64,000 bases of DNA from Acidobacteriota bacterium (GTDB lineage: Bacteria; Acidobacteriota; UBA890; WLXD01): positions 6,407 to 70,406 of the forward strand of contig JAJCXS010000263.1 in NCBI GenBank assembly GCA_029263335.1, in the 5' to 3' direction. Under the pieces are notes generated by a model, which did not search any database, was not told the DNA's origin, and saw nothing but the letters and a program-made list of their open reading frames with translations. The first letter of the stretch is position 1, and each line of letters opens with the position of its first letter. Positions 2,365 to 11,048 of the stretch are shown here, one piece after another. The position numbers and the translations under genes were made by a program.

Positions 2365-2535
2365 CTCGTTTGGGGTTACCTCACTTTGGTGGACACCTGA
2401 ACGCTTGGATCCAAGGGGCTGTGCGGATCGCGAAGCGATCTGCATGGTCACGGCAGTTTCCACCACCGTCGCCGGGTCTGATCCATGCCTCCGCTCGTAC
2501 TGGATCGGTGAGATACCGCCGAGCGCGGGGTGGCG

Positions 2536-3318
2536 TCAACGTGGGTTGTAGAAGCCTTCGATGAGCTCGAAGATCGCCATCCGCGCCTCCGCATGGGTGC
2601 GGAACGTGTTGCGCCACAGCAGCTCCGTCTCGAGCGTCGCGAAGAAGCTCTCGGCCATCGCGTTGTCGTGCGCATCGCCGACTGAGCCGATCGAGGGCCC
2701 TACGCCGAGCTGTTTGCATCGCTTCCCGAACTGGATCGAGGTGTACTGCGTTCCCTGGTCGCTGTGGTGGATCACCTGGTCGGGACGACGCTGCCAGATA
2801 GCCATGTTGAGCGCCTCGAGCAGCAACTCTGTGCGCAGGTGGTTGGCCATCGACCAACCCACCACGCGGCGGGAGTAGGCATCCAGAACGATGGCCAGGT
2901 ACAAGAACCCCGCCCAGGTTGAGACATACGTGATGTCCGAGACCCACAGCTGGTTGGCAGCCTCCGCGCGGAAGTTTCGCTTCACGAGATCCGGTACAAC
3001 CCGGGCATCATTGCCACGGCGCGTCGTCCGAGAGCGTCGCCGTCGGCTCACGCCTTCCAGTCGTGCCTGCTTCATCAGCTTCGCCACACGGCGCCGAGAG
3101 ATCCGCACTCCGGCTTCGGCCAGCTCGGCGTGCACGCGCGGAGAACCGTTCGTGACACGGCTCTCGGTGTGGATCGTCTCGATCCGGGCACGCAGGCGCG
3201 CATCTTCGCGCGCCCATGGACTCAGCGGCCGTTGGCGCCACGCGTAGTACCCGCTGGTGGAGATCTCCAGCACGCGGCACATCGTGGCAACCGGGTAGTG
3301 TACCTGGTGCTCGCTCAC
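2536..3318 (-). pseudogene. IS3 OrfB (DDE transposase), C-terminally truncated by nonsense codon
   Basis: A TGA follows …FYNPR where copy 2 reads CGA (R) and continues ~70 aa further. The DDE residues are still present. Confidence 0.5.
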
Positions 3319-3398
3319 GAACTCGAACGCTTCTTGGGCACCGAGTCCGTCTCCTGTGCGAACCAGGCCGCGGCTTTTGCGAGGATTTCTCGCTCTAC

Positions 3399-3626
3399 CT
3401 AGAGCTGACGGTTCTCTCGACGTAGGCGCCGGATTTCCTCGCGCTCCTTGGTGCTCAGCCTCTCAGCTGTGTGCCCATCGTCGCGGTCCGCCTGCTTGAT
3501 CCACTGATGGATCGTCCAGTACGACGGCTCGAACTCCTGAGCCAGTTCGTAGGCGCTGCGGCCGGCTCTCGCCAGCTCGATGATCTGTTGCCGATATTCC
3601 GGCGGATACGGTTTCGTTCTTGCCAT
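3399..3626 (-). pseudogene. IS3 OrfA (HTH), prematurely terminated
   Basis: The start MARTKPYPPEYRQQ has a GGAGG 9 nt upstream. It ends …RRENRQL at TAG where copy 2 reads AAG (K) and continues ~33 aa further. The track ORF 3399..3740 over-extends 5' past the IS end. Confidence 0.5.
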
Positions 3627-3697
3627 GGTGGACATCCTCCACCCCAAGCTCGAGACCGTCCACGTAACCGAGGCAACTCCACCCTTGGAGATGGATT

Positions 3698-3744
3698 GGA
3701 GTTTGACTCGGCTATGTGCAGCTCCGCATAGCCGAGTCAACTCC
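3698..3744. repeat. stem-loop (18-bp arms, 10-nt loop) 17 bp outside the IS right end
   Basis: Arms are GGAGTTTGACTCGGCTATG and CATAGCCGAGTCAACTCC. The arm sequence resembles the IS terminal IR (GGAGTTGCCTCGG…). Confidence 0.5.
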
Positions 3745-3825
3745 AGGGGTTCTCCATGGCTGCACCCTACCAGCGTCTCGGTTGAGCTGATAGGACCCGA
3801 GACAGGAGTTGCAGCCGGGCAGCGC

Positions 3826-4086
3826 CTAGATCGCGAACCGACACGCCTTCACTGTCACATGGTTTGGCGCGCTGTCGTACCATTGCGAGCACGTATCGCC
3901 GCTGGTCGAGCAGCTTTGCGCCGGGCCGCCACACGAGAGGATGTAGCCTGGACAATCTACTTCACAATTACCGCCCTGCGCCTGAGCCGTTGGCGCCGAG
4001 AGGAGCACGAAGCTGCTCGCAACAAGACAAAGACACGCGATCGGTACGTATAGCGCCTCGCGGAAACGGGTGCGTAATCGGTTCAT
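3826..4086 (-). CDS. small cysteine-rich secreted protein (86 aa precursor, ~49 aa mature, 6 Cys)
   Basis: It has a signal peptide (MNRLRTRFREALYVPIACLCLVASSFVLLSAPTAQAQ/G). The mature part is GGNCEVDCPGYILSCGGPAQSCSTSGDTCSQWYDSAPNHVTVKACRFAI. GAGG lies 7 nt upstream of the ATG. It sits between the two IS copies. Confidence 0.45.
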   Translation of the reverse strand: MNRLRTRFREALYVPIACLCLVASSFVLLSAPTAQAQGGNCEVDCPGYILSCGGPAQSCSTSGDTCSQWYDSAPNHVTVKACRFAI

Positions 4087-4139
4087 TTCGGGACCCTCAA
4101 TGTTGGGGCGGGCGTGTCAGTTCACATGATCCCCACCGC

Positions 4140-4176
4140 CTGCCGGGACAATATGGACACCAGGTTAGCCCGGCAG
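4140..4176. promoter_or_regulatory. 8-bp inverted repeat (CTGCCGGG…CCCGGCAG) upstream of the small Cys-rich peptide gene
   Basis: A perfect 8-bp IR with a 21-nt spacer lies ~55-90 bp upstream of the minus-strand start at 4086. Confidence 0.3.
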
Positions 4177-4504
4177 ACAGCGTCGCCGCGCGTCGTCGCG
4201 GAAGAGATTCGCGACACTATTCGACACCCCGCGCAGAAGCCCGCAGTAGCGTCCGCGACGTGGCGCGTGAAGGAGTAGTAGGGGGGCATTGGGAACTCGT
4301 GTGAGACGCGGAGCGTTTTTCACAGTTTCCGCGTTGGGCGGCATGTTTGAAGAAAGATGGCCACTGATCCAGTCTTGGGTGGCACCAGAGGATCTTCTGA
4401 CAAGCATAACGACCACTGACCAAGCCCAAGATGCTCGCTACCAAGTGGGCTCGTAGAGGCTGGCGGAACACGGAGGCCAGCTCCGCGAGGAGTAGCAACT
4501 GGAG

Positions 4505-5503
4505 TTACCTCACTTTGGTGGACACCTGAACGCTTGGAGTTTGGGTACTCGTAGTAGTAGTGAAGTGGGAACTCGTGGGAGCCGCAGGGCGGCTTCCAAG
4601 GGGCTGTGCGGATCGCGCAGCGATCTGCATGGTCACGGCAGTTTCCACGTCCGTGACCGGCTCTGATCCATGCCTCCGTTCGTACTGGATCGGGGAGATG
4701 CCGCCGAGCGCGGAGTGGCGTCGACGTGGGTTGTAGAAGCCTTCGATGAACTCGAAGATCGCCATCCGCGCCTCCGCATGGGTGCGGAACGTGTTGCGCC
4801 ACAGCAGTTCTGTCTCCAACGTTGCGAAGAAGCTCTCGGCCATGGCGTTGTCGTAGGCATCGCCGACGGAGCCCGTCGAGGGACGCACCCCGAGCTGCTT
4901 GCATCGCTTCCCGAACTGGATCGATGTGTATTGCGTTCCCTGATCGGAGTGATGGATTACGTCCCCCGGCTGCCTTTGCCAGATGGCCATGTTGAGCGCC
5001 TCGAGCACCAACTCTGTGCGCAGATGGTTAGCCATCGACCAACCGACCACGCGGCGGGAGTACGCATCCAGAACGATGGCCAGGTACAAGAACCCCGCCC
5101 AGGTTGAGACATAAGTGATGTCCGAGACCCACAGCTGGTTGGCAACCTCCGCGCGGAAGTTCCGTTTCACGAGGTCCGGTACAACCTGGGCATCATTGCC
5201 GCGGCGCGTCGTCCGAGAGCGTCGCCGTCGGCTCACCCCTTCCAGTCGTGCCTGCTTCATCAGCCTTGCCACACGGCGCCGAGAGATCCGCACTCCGCCC
5301 TCGGCCAGCTCGGCGTGCACGCGCGGAGAGCCGTACGTGCCACGGCTCTCGGTGTGGATCGTCTCGATCCGGGCACGCAAGCGCGCATCTTCGCGCGCTC
5401 GTCGGCTCAGCGGCCGTTGGCGCCACGCGTAGTACCCGCTGGTGGAGATCTCCAGCACGCGGCACATCGTGGCAACCGGGTAGTGGACCTGGTGTTCGCT
5501 CAC
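4505..5503 (-). CDS. IS3 OrfB (DDE transposase/integrase), full-length frame
   Basis: 332 aa with the integrase core motifs. In the intact element it would be expressed as an OrfAB fusion by -1 frameshift, but orfA in this copy has a nonsense codon. Confidence 0.55.
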   Translation of the reverse strand: MSEHQVHYPVATMCRVLEISTSGYYAWRQRPLSRRAREDARLRARIETIHTESRGTYGSPRVHAELAEGGVRISRRRVARLMKQARLEGVSRRRRSRTTRRGNDAQVVPDLVKRNFRAEVANQLWVSDITYVSTWAGFLYLAIVLDAYSRRVVGWSMANHLRTELVLEALNMAIWQRQPGDVIHHSDQGTQYTSIQFGKRCKQLGVRPSTGSVGDAYDNAMAESFFATLETELLWRNTFRTHAEARMAIFEFIEGFYNPRRRHSALGGISPIQYERRHGSEPVTDVETAVTMQIAARSAQPLGSRPAAPTSSHFTTTTSTQTPSVQVSTKVR

Positions 5504-5811
5504 GAACTCGAACCCTTCTTGGGCACCGAGTCGGTCTCCTGTGCGAACCAGGCCGCGGCTTTTGCGAGGATCTCTCGCTCGACCTTGAGTTGACGGTTCT
5601 CTCGACGCAGGCGCCGGAGTTCCTCGCGCTCCTTGGTGCTCAGCCCCTCAGCTGTGTGCCCGTCGTCGCGGTCCGCCTGCTTGACCCATTGATGGATCGT
5701 CCAGTACGACGGTTCGAACTCCTGGGACAGTTCGTAGGCGCTGCGGCCGGCCCTCGCCAGCTCGATGATCTGTTGCCGATACTACGGCGGATACGGTTTC
5801 GTTCTTGCCAT
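5501..5811 (-). pseudogene. IS3 OrfA with nonsense codon at codon 10
   Basis: It reads MARTKPYPP then TAG (5782-5784), where copy 1 has GAA (E). Otherwise the frame is full length, ending …KKGSSS*. Confidence 0.5.
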
Positions 5812-5866
5812 GGTGGACATCCTCCACCCCAAGCTCTAGACCGTCCACGTAACTGAGGCAACTCCA

Positions 5867-6553
5867 GCCTATGGCTTTGGCGACCTCGAGGGGGCTGCGG
5901 AGGGGTTCGGCCGCGCGGCCGAGGCAGCGCCGACGGTGGGGGACCCATTCTTTGGGTTGGCGTTGACCTACGAGGCGCTCGGAGAATGGGAGGACGCTGC
6001 GGTTGCCTACGAGTCCGCGCTCTGGTCGCGGCCAGGTTCGCCGGTCTTCCATGCAGGCTTGGGCGCTGCTCTTCAGCACTCCGGAGACACGGCCCGGGCC
6101 GCCTTGCACCTGGTGCGTGCGATCCGAGGGGGGATGTCGGGGGAGCAACTACGCGTAGGGCCGTTGGATGCCGTGGCCTCCACCGAGCAATCCCGGCGGC
6201 TGGCCGGCGTTCCGGTGCTTCACTGGCGGAGACCCAACGTGGCTAGCCTTGAATCGCAGGTAGCAGTTCGTGGAGCGGTTCTCGCCATAGGTCGGTTGCT
6301 GGACACTTCGCCGGAAGTGGTGCTGACGGAATGGCCAATCCAGGGCGTCCGGTCGCTGCACCTGCGCGTTGAATCTGTCGACGGAGCCGGGAATCGTGCC
6401 GAGACGGAACTCGAGCTGTACGACGTGACCGGCAAGCGTGTCGCGACTTGGCCGGTGCAGTTTGATGACCTGCGGGATGCAGATGAGGTGGCGCGTCTGG
6501 CGCGGGACGTGGTGACACGACTCCTTCGGCACGTGTCCGACGGAGAGTTGTGA
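5867..6553 (+). pseudogene. 3' fragment of a vWA-TPR family gene (paralog of 13683..15728), 5' end cut by IS copy 2
   Basis: The frame is open from the IS boundary, with no start. TPR-like repeats and a C-terminal region align with the C-terminus of the 681-aa protein (…DADEVARLARDVV… vs …NLDEVADELEASF…). Confidence 0.5.
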
Positions 6554-7216: not shown

Positions 7217-7738
7217 TCAGTGCTGCTCGGGCGTAAACAGGACCTCGAAACTGTCGATGAGGCGGCCCTCGTCGTCGGAGCCGGCCGTGATCGCCATCAA
7301 CTCGCCAGCGTCCGTCAGGCGGTATGTGATTCGGCGCGGGGAGTCTTGGTCGGGAACGTCGCTGTGGAAGACGGCTTCGCGATCGGATGCACTTAGCAGC
7401 GTGAACTCGAGCGGCCGATCTTCTTCCCAGGTCGAGTAGTCAGGTCGGAAGTGCTTGAAACGCATCACCACGCGCTCCGCCTCCTGGGAGATCATCAAGT
7501 ACTCGACGAGAGAAACCCCATCGTCTTGAACAAGCCGGAAGATGCCCAGCATCGTTCCTCCGGCTGCCGGAGTCCAATGCTCCTCAAAGCTCCCCCCGAG
7601 ACCCTTGCCGTACCAGGAGCCGGCAAGCCAGTCGACGTCGCTGAGAACGGGCGTTGGTGTACCCATGCCGAGGCTGTACGCAGGGCAGGTGAGGAGGGCT
7701 GCAAGGGCGATGATCGCGGTTGCCGTCTTTCCGTACAT
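7217..7738 (-). CDS. secreted hypothetical protein
   Basis: Signal peptide (MYGKTATAIIALAALLTCPAYS). No recognised catalytic motifs. Confidence 0.4.
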   Translation of the reverse strand: MYGKTATAIIALAALLTCPAYSLGMGTPTPVLSDVDWLAGSWYGKGLGGSFEEHWTPAAGGTMLGIFRLVQDDGVSLVEYLMISQEAERVVMRFKHFRPDYSTWEEDRPLEFTLLSASDREAVFHSDVPDQDSPRRITYRLTDAGELMAITAGSDDEGRLIDSFEVLFTPEQH

Positions 7739-8849: not shown

Positions 8850-11048
8850 TCACTGGCCCTGGACCCATACCGGCAGCTCCGCAGTTGCCCGCGTGCCCGC
8901 CACGAGATCGTGGACGGTCATCTGGATCGTGTGGAATGACGAGGTCAGCGTGTGGGGCAGTTCGACGCCTGCTAGCACCTGGATGGCGCCGGTGGCCGGG
9001 TCGCGGTCTTGCTCGATCACCCGTGCGCGTTCTACCGCCACCACGTTGCCCGTGGGGTCGAGTAGTCTGATCTTGACCTCCCAGGTTGGCTGCAGCGTAG
9101 ATGGGTTGAGGGCGAATCCGTGCATCTGGGAGTAGAACTGCACGACGTCTCCCGGGGCCGCCGTGGCGATCGCCGCCGGGGTGAGCTCGAAGTCGCCGAG
9201 CGCGAAGGGGAACGCCACCGGGCCGTCTTTCTTGTGCTCCGGAGGGTTGTCTGGGTCGAAGCCTCGAAGCATGAGACCGGGGTGCTGCCAGTCGATCGCC
9301 ACCGGCCCGTCGATGAATAGCCCTGCACGTGACCGGTGCGGCACGGGCACATCGTCGGTGCGCGCGCTGATCAGGCCGACCTCCGCATCGCGGATAATCG
9401 TGCGCACCTGGTTGAGCCCGGGACCCGACCACATCAGGTTGTAGTAGTGGAAGGGCAGCCCCGCGCTGCTGCTGTTTCGCATTCGCGCGAGATCGAGGAT
9501 CACCTGGCCGTCCGCCAAGTCCATCATCGTGCCCGAGCTGTTTAGCAGGTAGCTGAACATCTCGAGCTCGACCGTGTCATCGTTGCCGGCCCCCGCTAGC
9601 GCTTCGAGTTGTTCCCATGGCACCTCCACGATCACCGCCACTCGGCTGATGTCGTTCTCGCCCGCGAACGGGGTCACGGCGGTCTCGAACGCCAGTGAGC
9701 TATCCACCAACCCCTTGCTGATGAACTCGGCTAGCTGCGCCTGTTGCTGCATGGGCGACATGGTCTCGAACTTGCCCGGCACGGTCAGCCGCGAAGCGGC
9801 CGAGGTCACGACCGCGGCGTCGCGCCGGACGCTAACGTCGATGTCGAAGCTATCCGGGTCCTCGGGGCGGCGGGGTACGGCCAGCACGTAGTAATTGCGG
9901 GCAGCACGCTCGATGTCGCTCAGCCCGCTCACGATCTTGTTGGTGTTCCAGACGACCGAGCCACCGGTCCCATCGGCCCATATCGTCAGCGAGTTTCGTC
10001 CTGACCTGGTCCTTGCGCCCAGGAGCGAGGGCCTGAAGTTCCCCGGGTCACTGCCCCGGTCGCGTCCACCGGCGAGGCCTGACACGTCGATCATATGCAG
10101 CAATGCGTCCGCTTCCCTCAGGTCCCCGACGGCATCGTCGATCGCGTCGCGCACGTCGGCGCTGCCAAAGCGCTCCTCCGACCCAATCGAAGCGAGGCCT
10201 TCGCCAGGGTTCGTCTGGATCCGATTGGAATCGGCCGCTAGCTCATCGAGAGACTTGCCCACGAGCACTCGGTCCTCGAACCCCTCGGTGAAGAACAGCA
10301 CATGCTTGCGCCCGCGGATGACTTGCATCAGTTCGCCTAGCTGTTGGAGCTGGCTCGCGTAGCGAGCGACGAAGTTGGTGTATTGGGCGAACTCGGACCG
10401 TTTCACCATTCCTATGATCTCCTCGATCGCAACATCGGCCTCGGTCTTGCCACCCGAGGCATCGCCCGCCCCGGCCGCCCCCTCCATAAGATCGGCGATG
10501 AAGCCGGCGCGGTCGATGTTGCGAGTGGCCTGGGTCAGTCCGAGCCCGTCGATCGCGGTCCGGATCTGCACGCGGTCGCGCGTCAGGGGCACGATCGTGC
10601 GAACACCTTCGACCACGTTGTAGGTGACGACACTGACGAGGTCCTCGGGCAGCACGCTCTCGTCGAGAAACGCCAACGCGGCCTTGCGCGCCTCGAGAAC
10701 ACCGCGCGGGGAGTTGAACGCGGCATCGAACAGCATGACCCACTGACGCCAGGCCGCCGCGGGCAACGAGGAGTAGGGGAGCGGCCCGCCGTCCCTGGTG
10801 CCCCGGGGCGCGCGATTGACCTCGTAGGCGAGGACAAGCTCCCGCGGCTCACCGTCGACCCGAACCTCGAAGTCCTGAGTCACCAGCCCGGGAACGAACA
10901 GGCCTTCGTCGTCGGCTACGTTCACCTGAAACTGGATCAGTTCCACGTTGCTGCGGAACTGTGGCCGGGGCAGCGACTGTGCCCATCCGACCGTCTTCGG
11001 GAGGCATGCCAGCAACACTAGAACCGTAACTCGCGCGCGCCAGGCCAT
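8850..11048 (-). CDS. exported vWA-domain protein with conserved N-terminal 'FRS' module (resembles the VWFA-related Acidobacterial domain family)
   Basis: Signal peptide (MAWRARVTVLVLLACLPKTVGWAQS). The N-terminal module is PQFRSNVELIQFQVNVADDEGLFVPGLVTQDFEVRVDGEPREL. A vWA core (VMLFDAAFNS…) follows, then a long C-terminal region. Confidence 0.65.
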   Translation of the reverse strand: MAWRARVTVLVLLACLPKTVGWAQSLPRPQFRSNVELIQFQVNVADDEGLFVPGLVTQDFEVRVDGEPRELVLAYEVNRAPRGTRDGGPLPYSSLPAAAWRQWVMLFDAAFNSPRGVLEARKAALAFLDESVLPEDLVSVVTYNVVEGVRTIVPLTRDRVQIRTAIDGLGLTQATRNIDRAGFIADLMEGAAGAGDASGGKTEADVAIEEIIGMVKRSEFAQYTNFVARYASQLQQLGELMQVIRGRKHVLFFTEGFEDRVLVGKSLDELAADSNRIQTNPGEGLASIGSEERFGSADVRDAIDDAVGDLREADALLHMIDVSGLAGGRDRGSDPGNFRPSLLGARTRSGRNSLTIWADGTGGSVVWNTNKIVSGLSDIERAARNYYVLAVPRRPEDPDSFDIDVSVRRDAAVVTSAASRLTVPGKFETMSPMQQQAQLAEFISKGLVDSSLAFETAVTPFAGENDISRVAVIVEVPWEQLEALAGAGNDDTVELEMFSYLLNSSGTMMDLADGQVILDLARMRNSSSAGLPFHYYNLMWSGPGLNQVRTIIRDAEVGLISARTDDVPVPHRSRAGLFIDGPVAIDWQHPGLMLRGFDPDNPPEHKKDGPVAFPFALGDFELTPAAIATAAPGDVVQFYSQMHGFALNPSTLQPTWEVKIRLLDPTGNVVAVERARVIEQDRDPATGAIQVLAGVELPHTLTSSFHTIQMTVHDLVAGTRATAELPVWVQGQ

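Follow-up and report, generated by a model that had tools for sequence, protein, structure and literature searches.

Insertion sequences (IS) of the IS3 family are divided into the IS2, IS3, IS51, IS150 and IS407 subgroups, and IS3 itself uses an A AAA G slippery motif. Members of the family are found inserted near inverted repeat (IR)-like or palindromic sequences, as in the IR-targeting of IS911 and the insertion of IS1397 in REP/BIME, and directly repeated IS copies are known from composite transposons such as Tn9 (IS1-cat-IS1). The family is recognised by imperfect inverted repeats of the form 5′-TG...CA-3′, together with general family features (PMC6211511). Here, two neighbouring copies of an element of this type were analysed in the window, which is the whole 64-kb stretch of DNA under study and derives from a metagenome-assembled contig. 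The evidence set out below makes it very probable that the pair represents two distinct variants of one IS3-family element, which inserted independently, with matching orientation and a gap of ~0.8 kb, into a chromosomal region of low conservation in an uncultured bacterium.

Two IS3-family copies and their lesions

Copy 1 (2371-3681, 1311 bp) is an old pseudogene and copy 2 (4500-5866, 1367 bp) is full length; both are located on the minus strand, at the positions and in the direct orientation described in an earlier note on this DNA. Comparison of the two copies showed 92.7% identity over 1272 bp by blastn and 92.8% identity, with 94 mismatches, in a MAFFT alignment, the longest identical run being 80 bp. 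The copies are closely related, as had been claimed, although this base-by-base identity is slightly lower than the ~94% given previously. No third copy, intact or not, was found within the 64-kb window. The shared terminal inverted repeats were confirmed as 26-bp sequences (TGGAGTT...AACTCCA) that start with TG and end with CA, and IRL and IRR match at 20/26 positions. The two outer repeats are those with private substitutions, an A-to-G change at position 4 of the copy 1 IRR (2371-2396) and a G-to-A change at position 13 of the copy 2 IRL (5841-5866), whereas the inner repeats (copy 1 IRL, 3656-3681; copy 2 IRR, 4500-4525) have the consensus sequence.

The repaired, frameshifted OrfAB matched the NCBIfam model NF033516 (IS3 family transposase) over its full length (1-369/369) and scored 416 bits, well over the model's cut-off of 160. 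Pfam analysis identified HTH_Tnp_1 (PF01527, E = 5e-8) in OrfA, and rve (PF00665, 8e-27), HTH_21 (PF13276, 8e-18) and rve_3 (PF13683, 4e-13) in OrfB, while three-frame translation and codon mapping showed that orfB overlaps orfA and is read in the -1 frame. Together with the TG...CA ends, these matches bear out the assignment to the IS3 family that had been made from the sequence. In its full-length form the element is 1367 bp, with 26-bp inverted repeats and an orfA of 103 aa. The continuous full-length NF033516 match was obtained when the frames were joined at the slippery A AAA G motif (3374-3378 in copy 1 and 5559-5563 in copy 2); frameshifting at this site is predicted, and would yield an OrfAB fusion of ~436 aa. 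The AAAAG sequence is the same in the aligned relatives, except for a 1-nt gap in L087 (on a contig with ~2x coverage), and single-sequence folding detected no significant frameshift-stimulating RNA structure downstream of the motif (z = -0.96). By analogy with other members of the family, transposition would be copy-out, paste-in, via a figure-of-eight and a circular intermediate. Exact-protein look-ups of both orfB products returned no record; both products are nevertheless on record in a cluster listing, from an NCBI contig.

In copy 1, orfA starts with an ATG at 3624-3626 and is interrupted at codon 76 by a TAG (3399-3401; AAG at 5584-5586 in copy 2), and orfB is interrupted by a TGA (2536-2538; CGA at 4721-4723 in copy 2). 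In copy 2, orfA extends from an ATG at 5809-5811 to a stop at 5500-5502 and is interrupted at codon 10 by a TAG (5782-5784), where copy 1 has GAA (3597-3599) and the relatives have GAG. This is the sole lesion of copy 2, which is one G-to-T change from intact; its orfB is intact and ends in a TAA (4505-4507) that falls within the IRR. All three nonsense codons lie where the earlier note had placed them. That note did not mention a 56-bp indel between the copies, which corresponds to a segment located between the orfB core and the IRR (4539-4594, minus strand, in copy 2) that is missing from copy 1 at the junction of 2409 and 2410. Because all other relatives carry this segment, the indel is a deletion in copy 1, and it is private to that copy. 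Neither copy is able to encode OrfAB, since orfA is broken in both and orfB is also broken in copy 1. As the note had pointed out, the copies are inactivated at different sites and together hold every segment intact. Both copies are now dead.

Divergence of the copies and assembly support

The pair had previously been described as mutually decayed copies of one element. Comparison of copy 1 with copy 2 gave dN/dS values of 0.14 for orfA and 0.21 for orfB, and copy 1, copy 2 and an outside variant, L003, were mutually equidistant (92.5-93.5% identity), both of which contradict that description. Copies 1 and 2 resemble each other no more than they resemble L003 and L005, which come from other samples, and parsimony-informative sites are distributed 6 / 6 / 2 across the three possible groupings of copy 1, copy 2 and L003. 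Because most of the 7% divergence is synonymous, and because of the equidistance to L003, the copies are read as pre-diverged variants that were inserted separately. The substitution pattern indicates that their divergence built up under purifying selection, before inactivation.

The decay was lopsided, and not symmetrical as the previous description would have it. Among private orfB substitutions, copy 1 has a non-synonymous to synonymous ratio of 14:10 and a stop in addition, compared with 8:17 for copy 2 and 6:16 for L003 (Fisher p = 0.024). Three lesions and relaxed constraint in copy 1 stand against one point change in copy 2. Of the two, copy 1 has been defunct for longer: both of its ORFs contain a nonsense codon, 56 bp are deleted, non-synonymous changes are in excess and the IRR is mutated. 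In copy 2, one recent G-to-T substitution, at codon 10, put orfA out of action.

An alternative that we consider very unlikely is that the locus is in part an assembly artefact, in which the IS sequences are consensus mosaics and the copy 2 stop or some of the junctions are not real. The source is a metagenome-assembled contig, and a second assembly confirms just one of its junctions, that at which copy 2 meets the right flank. This independent Logan assembly breaks off 60 bp into copy 2, informative sites common to copy 2 and L003 are concentrated at IS positions 891-993, and other assemblies contain pairs of copies that share a left flank yet differ in their right flank. However, the 94 differing positions and the 56-bp indel mean that reads can separate the copies, with an identical run of just 80 bp at most, and in copy 1 relaxed constraint provides a signal that is independent of the lesions found there. 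Furthermore, the one junction was reproduced exactly, as Logan assembly L001 contains the copy 2/right-flank junction at 100% identity, including two IRL bases that are specific to copy 2. The copy 2 TAG and the mosaic at IS positions 891-993 could still reflect consensus or chimeric assembly of several copies.

Target duplications, flanks and spacer

All flank pairings were checked for a target duplication, and none of 3 bp or 4 bp was found, either at the individual copies or around the pair as a unit, in agreement with the earlier failure to recognise target-site duplications at either copy. Copy 1 is flanked by CGTT and CCCT and copy 2 by CAAC and GCCT, leaving CGTT and GCCT as the outer flanks of the unit. 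Relatives of the element include ten identical 1367-bp copies (L092-L101) in which orfA and orfB are intact; in L092 the copy occupies positions 1138-2504. Among the relatives, 3-bp duplications were present at five sites (GTG, CAC, CGG and CGG among L092-L101, and GCC in L004), and a 4-bp duplication, CCAC, was present at one site (L092/L096, also L087). Four of the identical copies (L093, L094, L097 and L100) have no duplication, and two of these, L094 and L100, share one left flank. Because relatives of the same element make these duplications, their absence from the window is taken to be secondary, and not a mismatch with the family. In published work, the main causes given for missing duplications are adjacent deletions and recombination among IS copies (PMC11708052).

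On the left of the pair, a plus-strand ORF (1930-2364), a probable small membrane protein if its start is at 2147, stops 6 bp ahead of the copy 1 IRR and is left uninterrupted by the IS. On the right, a plus-strand ORF with weak TPR matches (5867-6553) has a frame that is open up to the copy 2 boundary. The TPR matches start upstream of the first start codon (GTG, 5936), where the open frame comprises 23 codons, and on the basis of these weak matches and this open frame the ORF is probably 5′-truncated by an IS-associated rearrangement. The missing target duplications and the apparent truncation of the ORF abutting copy 2 suggest that adjacent deletion, or recombination involving other copies, probably reshuffled the flanks after insertion. 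The right-flank ORF matched itself alone among ~5.8 billion proteins, and no empty site was found through this search or through relatives of the neighbouring 732-aa protein. The latter is encoded on two JGI contigs at 79-81% amino-acid identity, where synteny ends at the edges of the 732-aa gene on both sides, so that these contigs show no pre-insertion state. The related contig L090 carries a solo IRR remnant of 59 bp, and its synteny breaks down directly next to the shared 732-aa gene. As no empty site was found, we infer in what order the events took place and where the spacer came from.

The spacer between the copies (3682-4499, 818 bp) contains an orphan ORF (3826-4086, minus strand) whose putative 86-aa product has a signal-peptide-like N-terminus and six Cys among its last 50 residues; a GAGGG precedes the ATG by 7 nt. 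The earlier note had presented it as a secreted Cys-rich peptide gene; the ORF exists at this position, but it has zero homologues and is absent from public gene calls. No homologue emerged from a word-indexed search covering ~5.8 billion proteins, from phmmer run against 1.84 billion representatives, or from JGI metagenome DNA scanned with tblastn confirmation; no Pfam or NCBIfam family was matched, and an exact-protein look-up in the public gene-call collection was negative. Matches to sequences in the PDB were to gp120 only and were rejected as spurious. A scan of the spacer for sigma-70 promoters found none, and its other ORFs matched no Pfam family. The spacer is what was left between the copies, and not a demonstrable cargo.

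A 49-bp palindrome (3697-3745) sits 15 bp outside the copy 1 IRL and consists of two IRL-like arms with TGGAG...CTCCA outer ends. An arm matches the IRL at 16/19 positions (0/100 shuffles were as good), and the hairpin has a predicted energy of -42 kcal/mol (z = -8.3). A MITE was considered, which would show inverted repeats resembling those of its parent IS, a target duplication and several dispersed copies. The flanks of the palindrome, GAT and GGG, show no target duplication, and neither the window nor a scan of 19 closely related loci yielded a second copy. Rfam searches of the region and of the whole window returned nothing real, a miRNA-shaped match to the palindrome being spurious. Within the spacer, a 41-bp stretch (4275-4315) shows 78% identity to a portion of the 56-bp segment in copy 2 and is borderline (blastn E = 0.006; local alignment score 37, with the best of 200 shuffles also 37); it could be the decayed remains of a third IS, or the similarity could be due to chance.

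The arrangement had been called composite-transposon-like, which would imply that the pair is, or was, a composite transposon in which the 818-bp segment was mobilised via the outer ends, with the Cys-rich gene as cargo and transposase supplied in trans. The geometry supports this description, in that direct copies bracket a short unique segment, and the terminal TG and CA are intact at both outer ends; intact relatives in other metagenomes make transposase in trans possible in principle. Beyond the geometry, the findings point the other way: the unit has no flanking duplication of 3 or 4 bp, nonsense codons in both copies leave no functional transposase from either, the private substitutions fall exactly in the two outer repeats with the inner ones matching the consensus, the copies are diverged variants and not twins, and there is no other copy, intact or not, in the window. 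Because the supposed cargo has no homologue in the protein and metagenome DNA searches, the unit itself is seen nowhere else. A composite transposon is, in our judgement, very improbable. The same low likelihood attaches to a fuller scenario of a fossil composite with a lineage-restricted, secreted, disulfide-rich 86-aa peptide, in which copy 2 would be revivable by a short gene conversion from copy 1 (GAA for TAG at codon 10) and the IRL-like palindrome would have acted as insertion bait.

It is scarcely credible that one original insertion gave rise to both copies by tandem duplication or a local hop, and that these daughters decayed neutrally in place, since, despite the proximity and shared orientation of the copies, neutral decay in place predicts a dN/dS near 1 and not the values observed, the copies are as far from each other as from L003 and L005 of other samples, and the copy 2 lineage was still under strong purifying selection, as its 8 non-synonymous to 17 synonymous changes show.

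Significance and comparison with known systems

Independent insertion of two variants, the reading preferred here, matters little beyond annotation. The analysis defines an unnamed IS3-family element (1367 bp, 26-bp repeats, an A AAA G site and mostly 3-bp duplications) that has active, multi-copy relatives in long-read metagenomes, and the two dead variants in the window mark a chromosomal region that is poorly conserved and probably rearranged. The transposase fragments at this locus should be annotated as pseudogenes, and the 86-aa ORF should not be taken as an established secreted-peptide gene. With a longest identical run of 80 bp, the direct repeats are a potential substrate for deletion and a likely break point for assemblers.

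The locus resembles Tn9-type composites in having two direct IS copies around a short unique segment. It differs from them in that no target duplication surrounds the unit, the copies are defective, 92.8% identical and mutated in their outer repeats, and the cargo is an orphan ORF within a unit not seen elsewhere. The IRL-armed palindrome 15 bp from the copy 1 IRL recalls the targeting seen with IS911 and IS1397; unlike in those systems, the ends do not abut, the IS lies outside the palindrome, and the palindrome is single-copy in the sequences scanned.

With respect to the IS3 family, the transposase is only 59-69% identical to the best matches listed in named genomes and plasmids. The genome matches listed, at 59-69% identity, include Longimicrobiales, other Gemmatimonadota MAGs and many Proteobacteria, while tblastn against plasmids returned only generic "IS3 family transposase" labels at ≤65% identity. 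In further contrast to IS3, orfB here runs through a Thr/Ser-rich tail and stops within the IRR, and both copies in the window are pseudogenes. The element nevertheless shares with IS3 of Escherichia coli and the family at large a length of ~1.3 kb, TG...CA repeats, an HTH-bearing orfA, a DDE rve orfB in the -1 frame, the A AAA G motif and, in its relatives, target duplications of 3 bp and at times 4 bp, and it is an ordinary, unnamed member of the known IS3 family.

The two IS copies and their lesions

The two IS3-family elements lie in the same orientation on the minus strand, copy 1 at 2371-3681 (1311 bp) and copy 2 at 4500-5866 (1367 bp), as an earlier note based on sequence alone had described them, and all of its codon-level statements were verified. 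Blastn aligned the copies at 92.7% identity across 1272 bp, plus a 39-bp end match, and found no third copy in the 64-kb window; a MAFFT alignment gave 92.8% identity with 94 mismatches. The high similarity reported previously stands, at 92.7-92.8% and with a 56-bp deletion in copy 1 rather than at ~94%. The length difference is a single 56-bp indel, located at 4539-4594 in copy 2 and missing between 2409 and 2410 of copy 1. The segment is present in all six full-length relatives initially compared from other assemblies and metagenomes (L003, L004, L005, L087, L088 and L089), and ten further identical relatives also measure 1367 bp; copy 1 has therefore lost it.

Copy 1 carries nonsense codons in orfA (codon 76, TAG at 3399-3401, AAG in copy 2) and in orfB (TGA at 2536-2538, CGA at 4721-4723 of copy 2), and has three disabling lesions in total as well as an altered right inverted repeat (IRR; TGGGG instead of TGGAG). 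The sole lesion of copy 2 is a GAG to TAG change at orfA codon 10 (5782-5784; GAA in copy 1), together with one private change at position 13 of its left inverted repeat (IRL). The main caveat is that the window is a metagenome-assembled contig. A second assembly confirms a single junction out of four, and no stop codon: in the independent Logan assembly of run SRR15505518, contig L001 is identical to the window where copy 2 meets the right flank, and ends 60 bp into the IS.

Divergence, asymmetric decay and active relatives

The earlier note had interpreted the pair as copies of one element decaying mutually in place. Comparison of copy 1 with copy 2 gave dN/dS values of 0.14 for orfA and 0.21 for orfB, indicating that most of their divergence accrued under purifying selection on the transposase, and copy 1, copy 2 and the outside locus L003 are mutually equidistant (92.8%, 92.5% and 93.5%). 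Both results speak against mutual decay in place, and identify the copies as separate variants that arrived separately. Parsimony-informative sites unite copy 1 with copy 2 (six sites), copy 2 with L003 (six) and copy 1 with L003 (two), and those shared by copy 2 and L003 cluster at IS positions 891-993. The three sequences form an unresolved trichotomy, and the clustering hints at mosaicism. The decay is asymmetric. Private changes in orfB of copy 1 comprise 14 non-synonymous and 10 synonymous substitutions and a stop, the ratios being 8:17 for copy 2 and 6:16 for L003 (Fisher p = 0.024), and some of the copy 1 substitutions hit strongly conserved stretches (GTYGSPR to VTNGSPR, GDAYDNA to GDAHDNA).

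The comparison copies came from contigs encoding OrfB relatives at 82-97% identity, recovered by protein search. L003 and L005 match the window copies at 92-93% identity and each other at 99.85%, yet each has a deletion of its own, of 13 bp in orfA (L003) and of 31 bp in orfB (L005). L004 (88% identical) has a 1-nt deletion near the orfB 3′ end, and L089 (87.5%) is apparently intact. Ten loci from long-read metagenome assemblies (L092-L101, IS at 1138-2504 in each) hold 100%-identical copies of exactly 1367 bp, with orfA (103 aa) and orfB (332 aa) intact and 88.6% identity to copy 2. The sequences around these identical, intact copies differ, with at least eight contexts represented, as is characteristic of an active element; this relative is evidently an active IS making mostly 3-bp target duplications: GTG, CAC, CGG and CGG were seen among the identical copies and GCC in L004, with a 4-bp duplication (CCAC) at one site. 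Comparison of the L092-L101 flanks showed no duplication at four loci, among them L094 and L100, which have a common left flank but differ in the right one; L003 and L005 likewise lack a target duplication and have identical left but not right flanks. Duplication loss is thus common in this IS lineage, and may reflect recombination between IS copies or chimeric assembly across the repeat.

In the window (4505-4600) and in all relatives, orfB reads past the conserved SPIQYERRH motif into a Thr/Ser-rich tail, which crosses the 56-bp segment and ends at a TAA inside the IRR. The active relatives have conserved this tail; either protein coding or a DNA end function may account for its conservation.

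Flanks, spacer and the composite-transposon reading

As stated previously, target-site duplications are not recognisable at either copy: no 3- or 4-bp duplication was found for copy 1 (flanks CGTT and CCCT), copy 2 (CAAC and GCCT), the whole unit or the crossed pairings. Point mutation is not a credible way to turn an originally duplicated triplet into three mismatches, and the flanks must have been exchanged or deleted. This accords with the right-flank ORF (5867-6553), whose frame is open up to the copy 2 boundary and whose weak TPR-type matches start at residue 4 of the translation, ahead of the first start codon; its sequence suggests a 5′-truncated gene, the missing 5′ part of which is absent from the spacer and the left flank. 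Missing duplications have been put down mainly to adjacent deletions and recombination between IS copies (PMC11708052).

Only the geometry of the pair fits a composite transposon, which would use the outer ends (the copy 1 IRR and the copy 2 IRL). Besides the lack of a duplication, private inverted-repeat substitutions are found only on these outer ends, at 2374 (copy 1 IRR position 4, A to G) and 5854 (copy 2 IRL position 13, G to A), and the inner ends agree with the consensus of all relatives. Interpretation of the pair as a composite transposon is not supported.

The supposed cargo, a secreted Cys-rich peptide gene, is present in the spacer (3682-4499) as an 86-aa ORF at 3826-4086 on the minus strand, with six Cys within its last 50 residues and an N-terminus that by eye resembles a Sec signal peptide (a basic region, a hydrophobic region, then AQA followed by QG). 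GAGGG lies 7 nt upstream of the ATG, which also counts for a real gene, and GC at codon position 3 is 0.68, the highest among spacer ORFs over 80 aa but towards the bottom of the range for the genome's genes. Its status as a gene is where the claim falls short, as no homologue was found by any method (protein searches, metagenome DNA, Pfam, NCBIfam and PDB sequences); the ORF is also missing from a public gene-call collection that does list neighbouring genes of the same contig. It is possibly an orphan gene, as yet unproven. Searches of the spacer for Rfam families, promoter-like sites and other Pfam matches were negative.

Two further spacer features were observed. A 41-bp stretch (4275-4315) is 78% identical to 4551-4591, part of the segment deleted from copy 1, with a local alignment score of 37 that equals the maximum of 200 shuffles (37). 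A terminator-like hairpin with a T-run (4297-4311) overlaps this stretch. The match may have arisen by chance or may mark a highly decayed third fragment of the IS. A 49-bp near-perfect palindrome (3697-3745; TGGAGTTTGACTCGGCTATGTGCAG|CTCCGCATAGCCGAGTCAACTCCA) lies 15 bp outside the copy 1 IRL and folds at -42 kcal/mol (z = -8.3). Both arms resemble the IS IRL at 16/19 positions, a match reached by 0/100 shuffles, and the TGGAG/CTCCA motifs point outward, the arrangement expected of an IS that has lost its interior. No target-site duplication flanks the palindrome, and neither the window nor the related loci scanned yielded a further copy. Possible identities are a minimal MITE-like relic, an insertion target mimicking the IR, and a terminator hairpin.

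Beyond the pair, a 732-aa gene (8850-11048) has an orthologue on two JGI contigs with nothing else in common on either side, and the ancestral empty site was not recovered from these contigs. On one of them, L090, the orthologue has 83% nucleotide identity, synteny stops at both gene borders, and a 59-bp solo IRR remnant of the window IS lies at 7418-7476, about 1.6 kb from the orthologue. Conservation of this neighbourhood is thus poor, and the IS has inserted there repeatedly. A search of about 5.8 billion proteins with the right-flank ORF found only itself, one with the 86-aa ORF found none, and the whole stretch containing both looks lineage-specific.

Place in the IS3 family

OrfA matches HTH_Tnp_1, and OrfB matches HTH_21, rve and rve_3. 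orfB lies in the -1 frame, and the overlap holds GCA AAA G, an A AAA G slippery motif that is identical in the aligned relatives except for a 1-nt gap in L087, a low-coverage contig. A conceptual OrfAB, built from copy 2 with the TAG reverted and a -1 shift at A AAA G, matched the whole NCBIfam profile NF033516 (IS3 family transposase; 1-369 of 369) at 416 bits (cut-off 160). IRL and IRR match at 20/26 positions, and the IS ends read TGGAGTT...AACTCCA, in agreement with the TG...CA rule of the family (PMC6211511). Among the matches listed, the nearest transposases in named genomes and plasmids are 59-69% identical; those in named genomes include Longimicrobiales and other Gemmatimonadota MAGs (about 67% identity) and many Proteobacteria, a distribution that carries no taxonomic claim. 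Judged by these sequence comparisons, the IS has not been described before and is an ordinary, previously unnamed IS3-family element, present as two independently inserted and unequally decayed variants.
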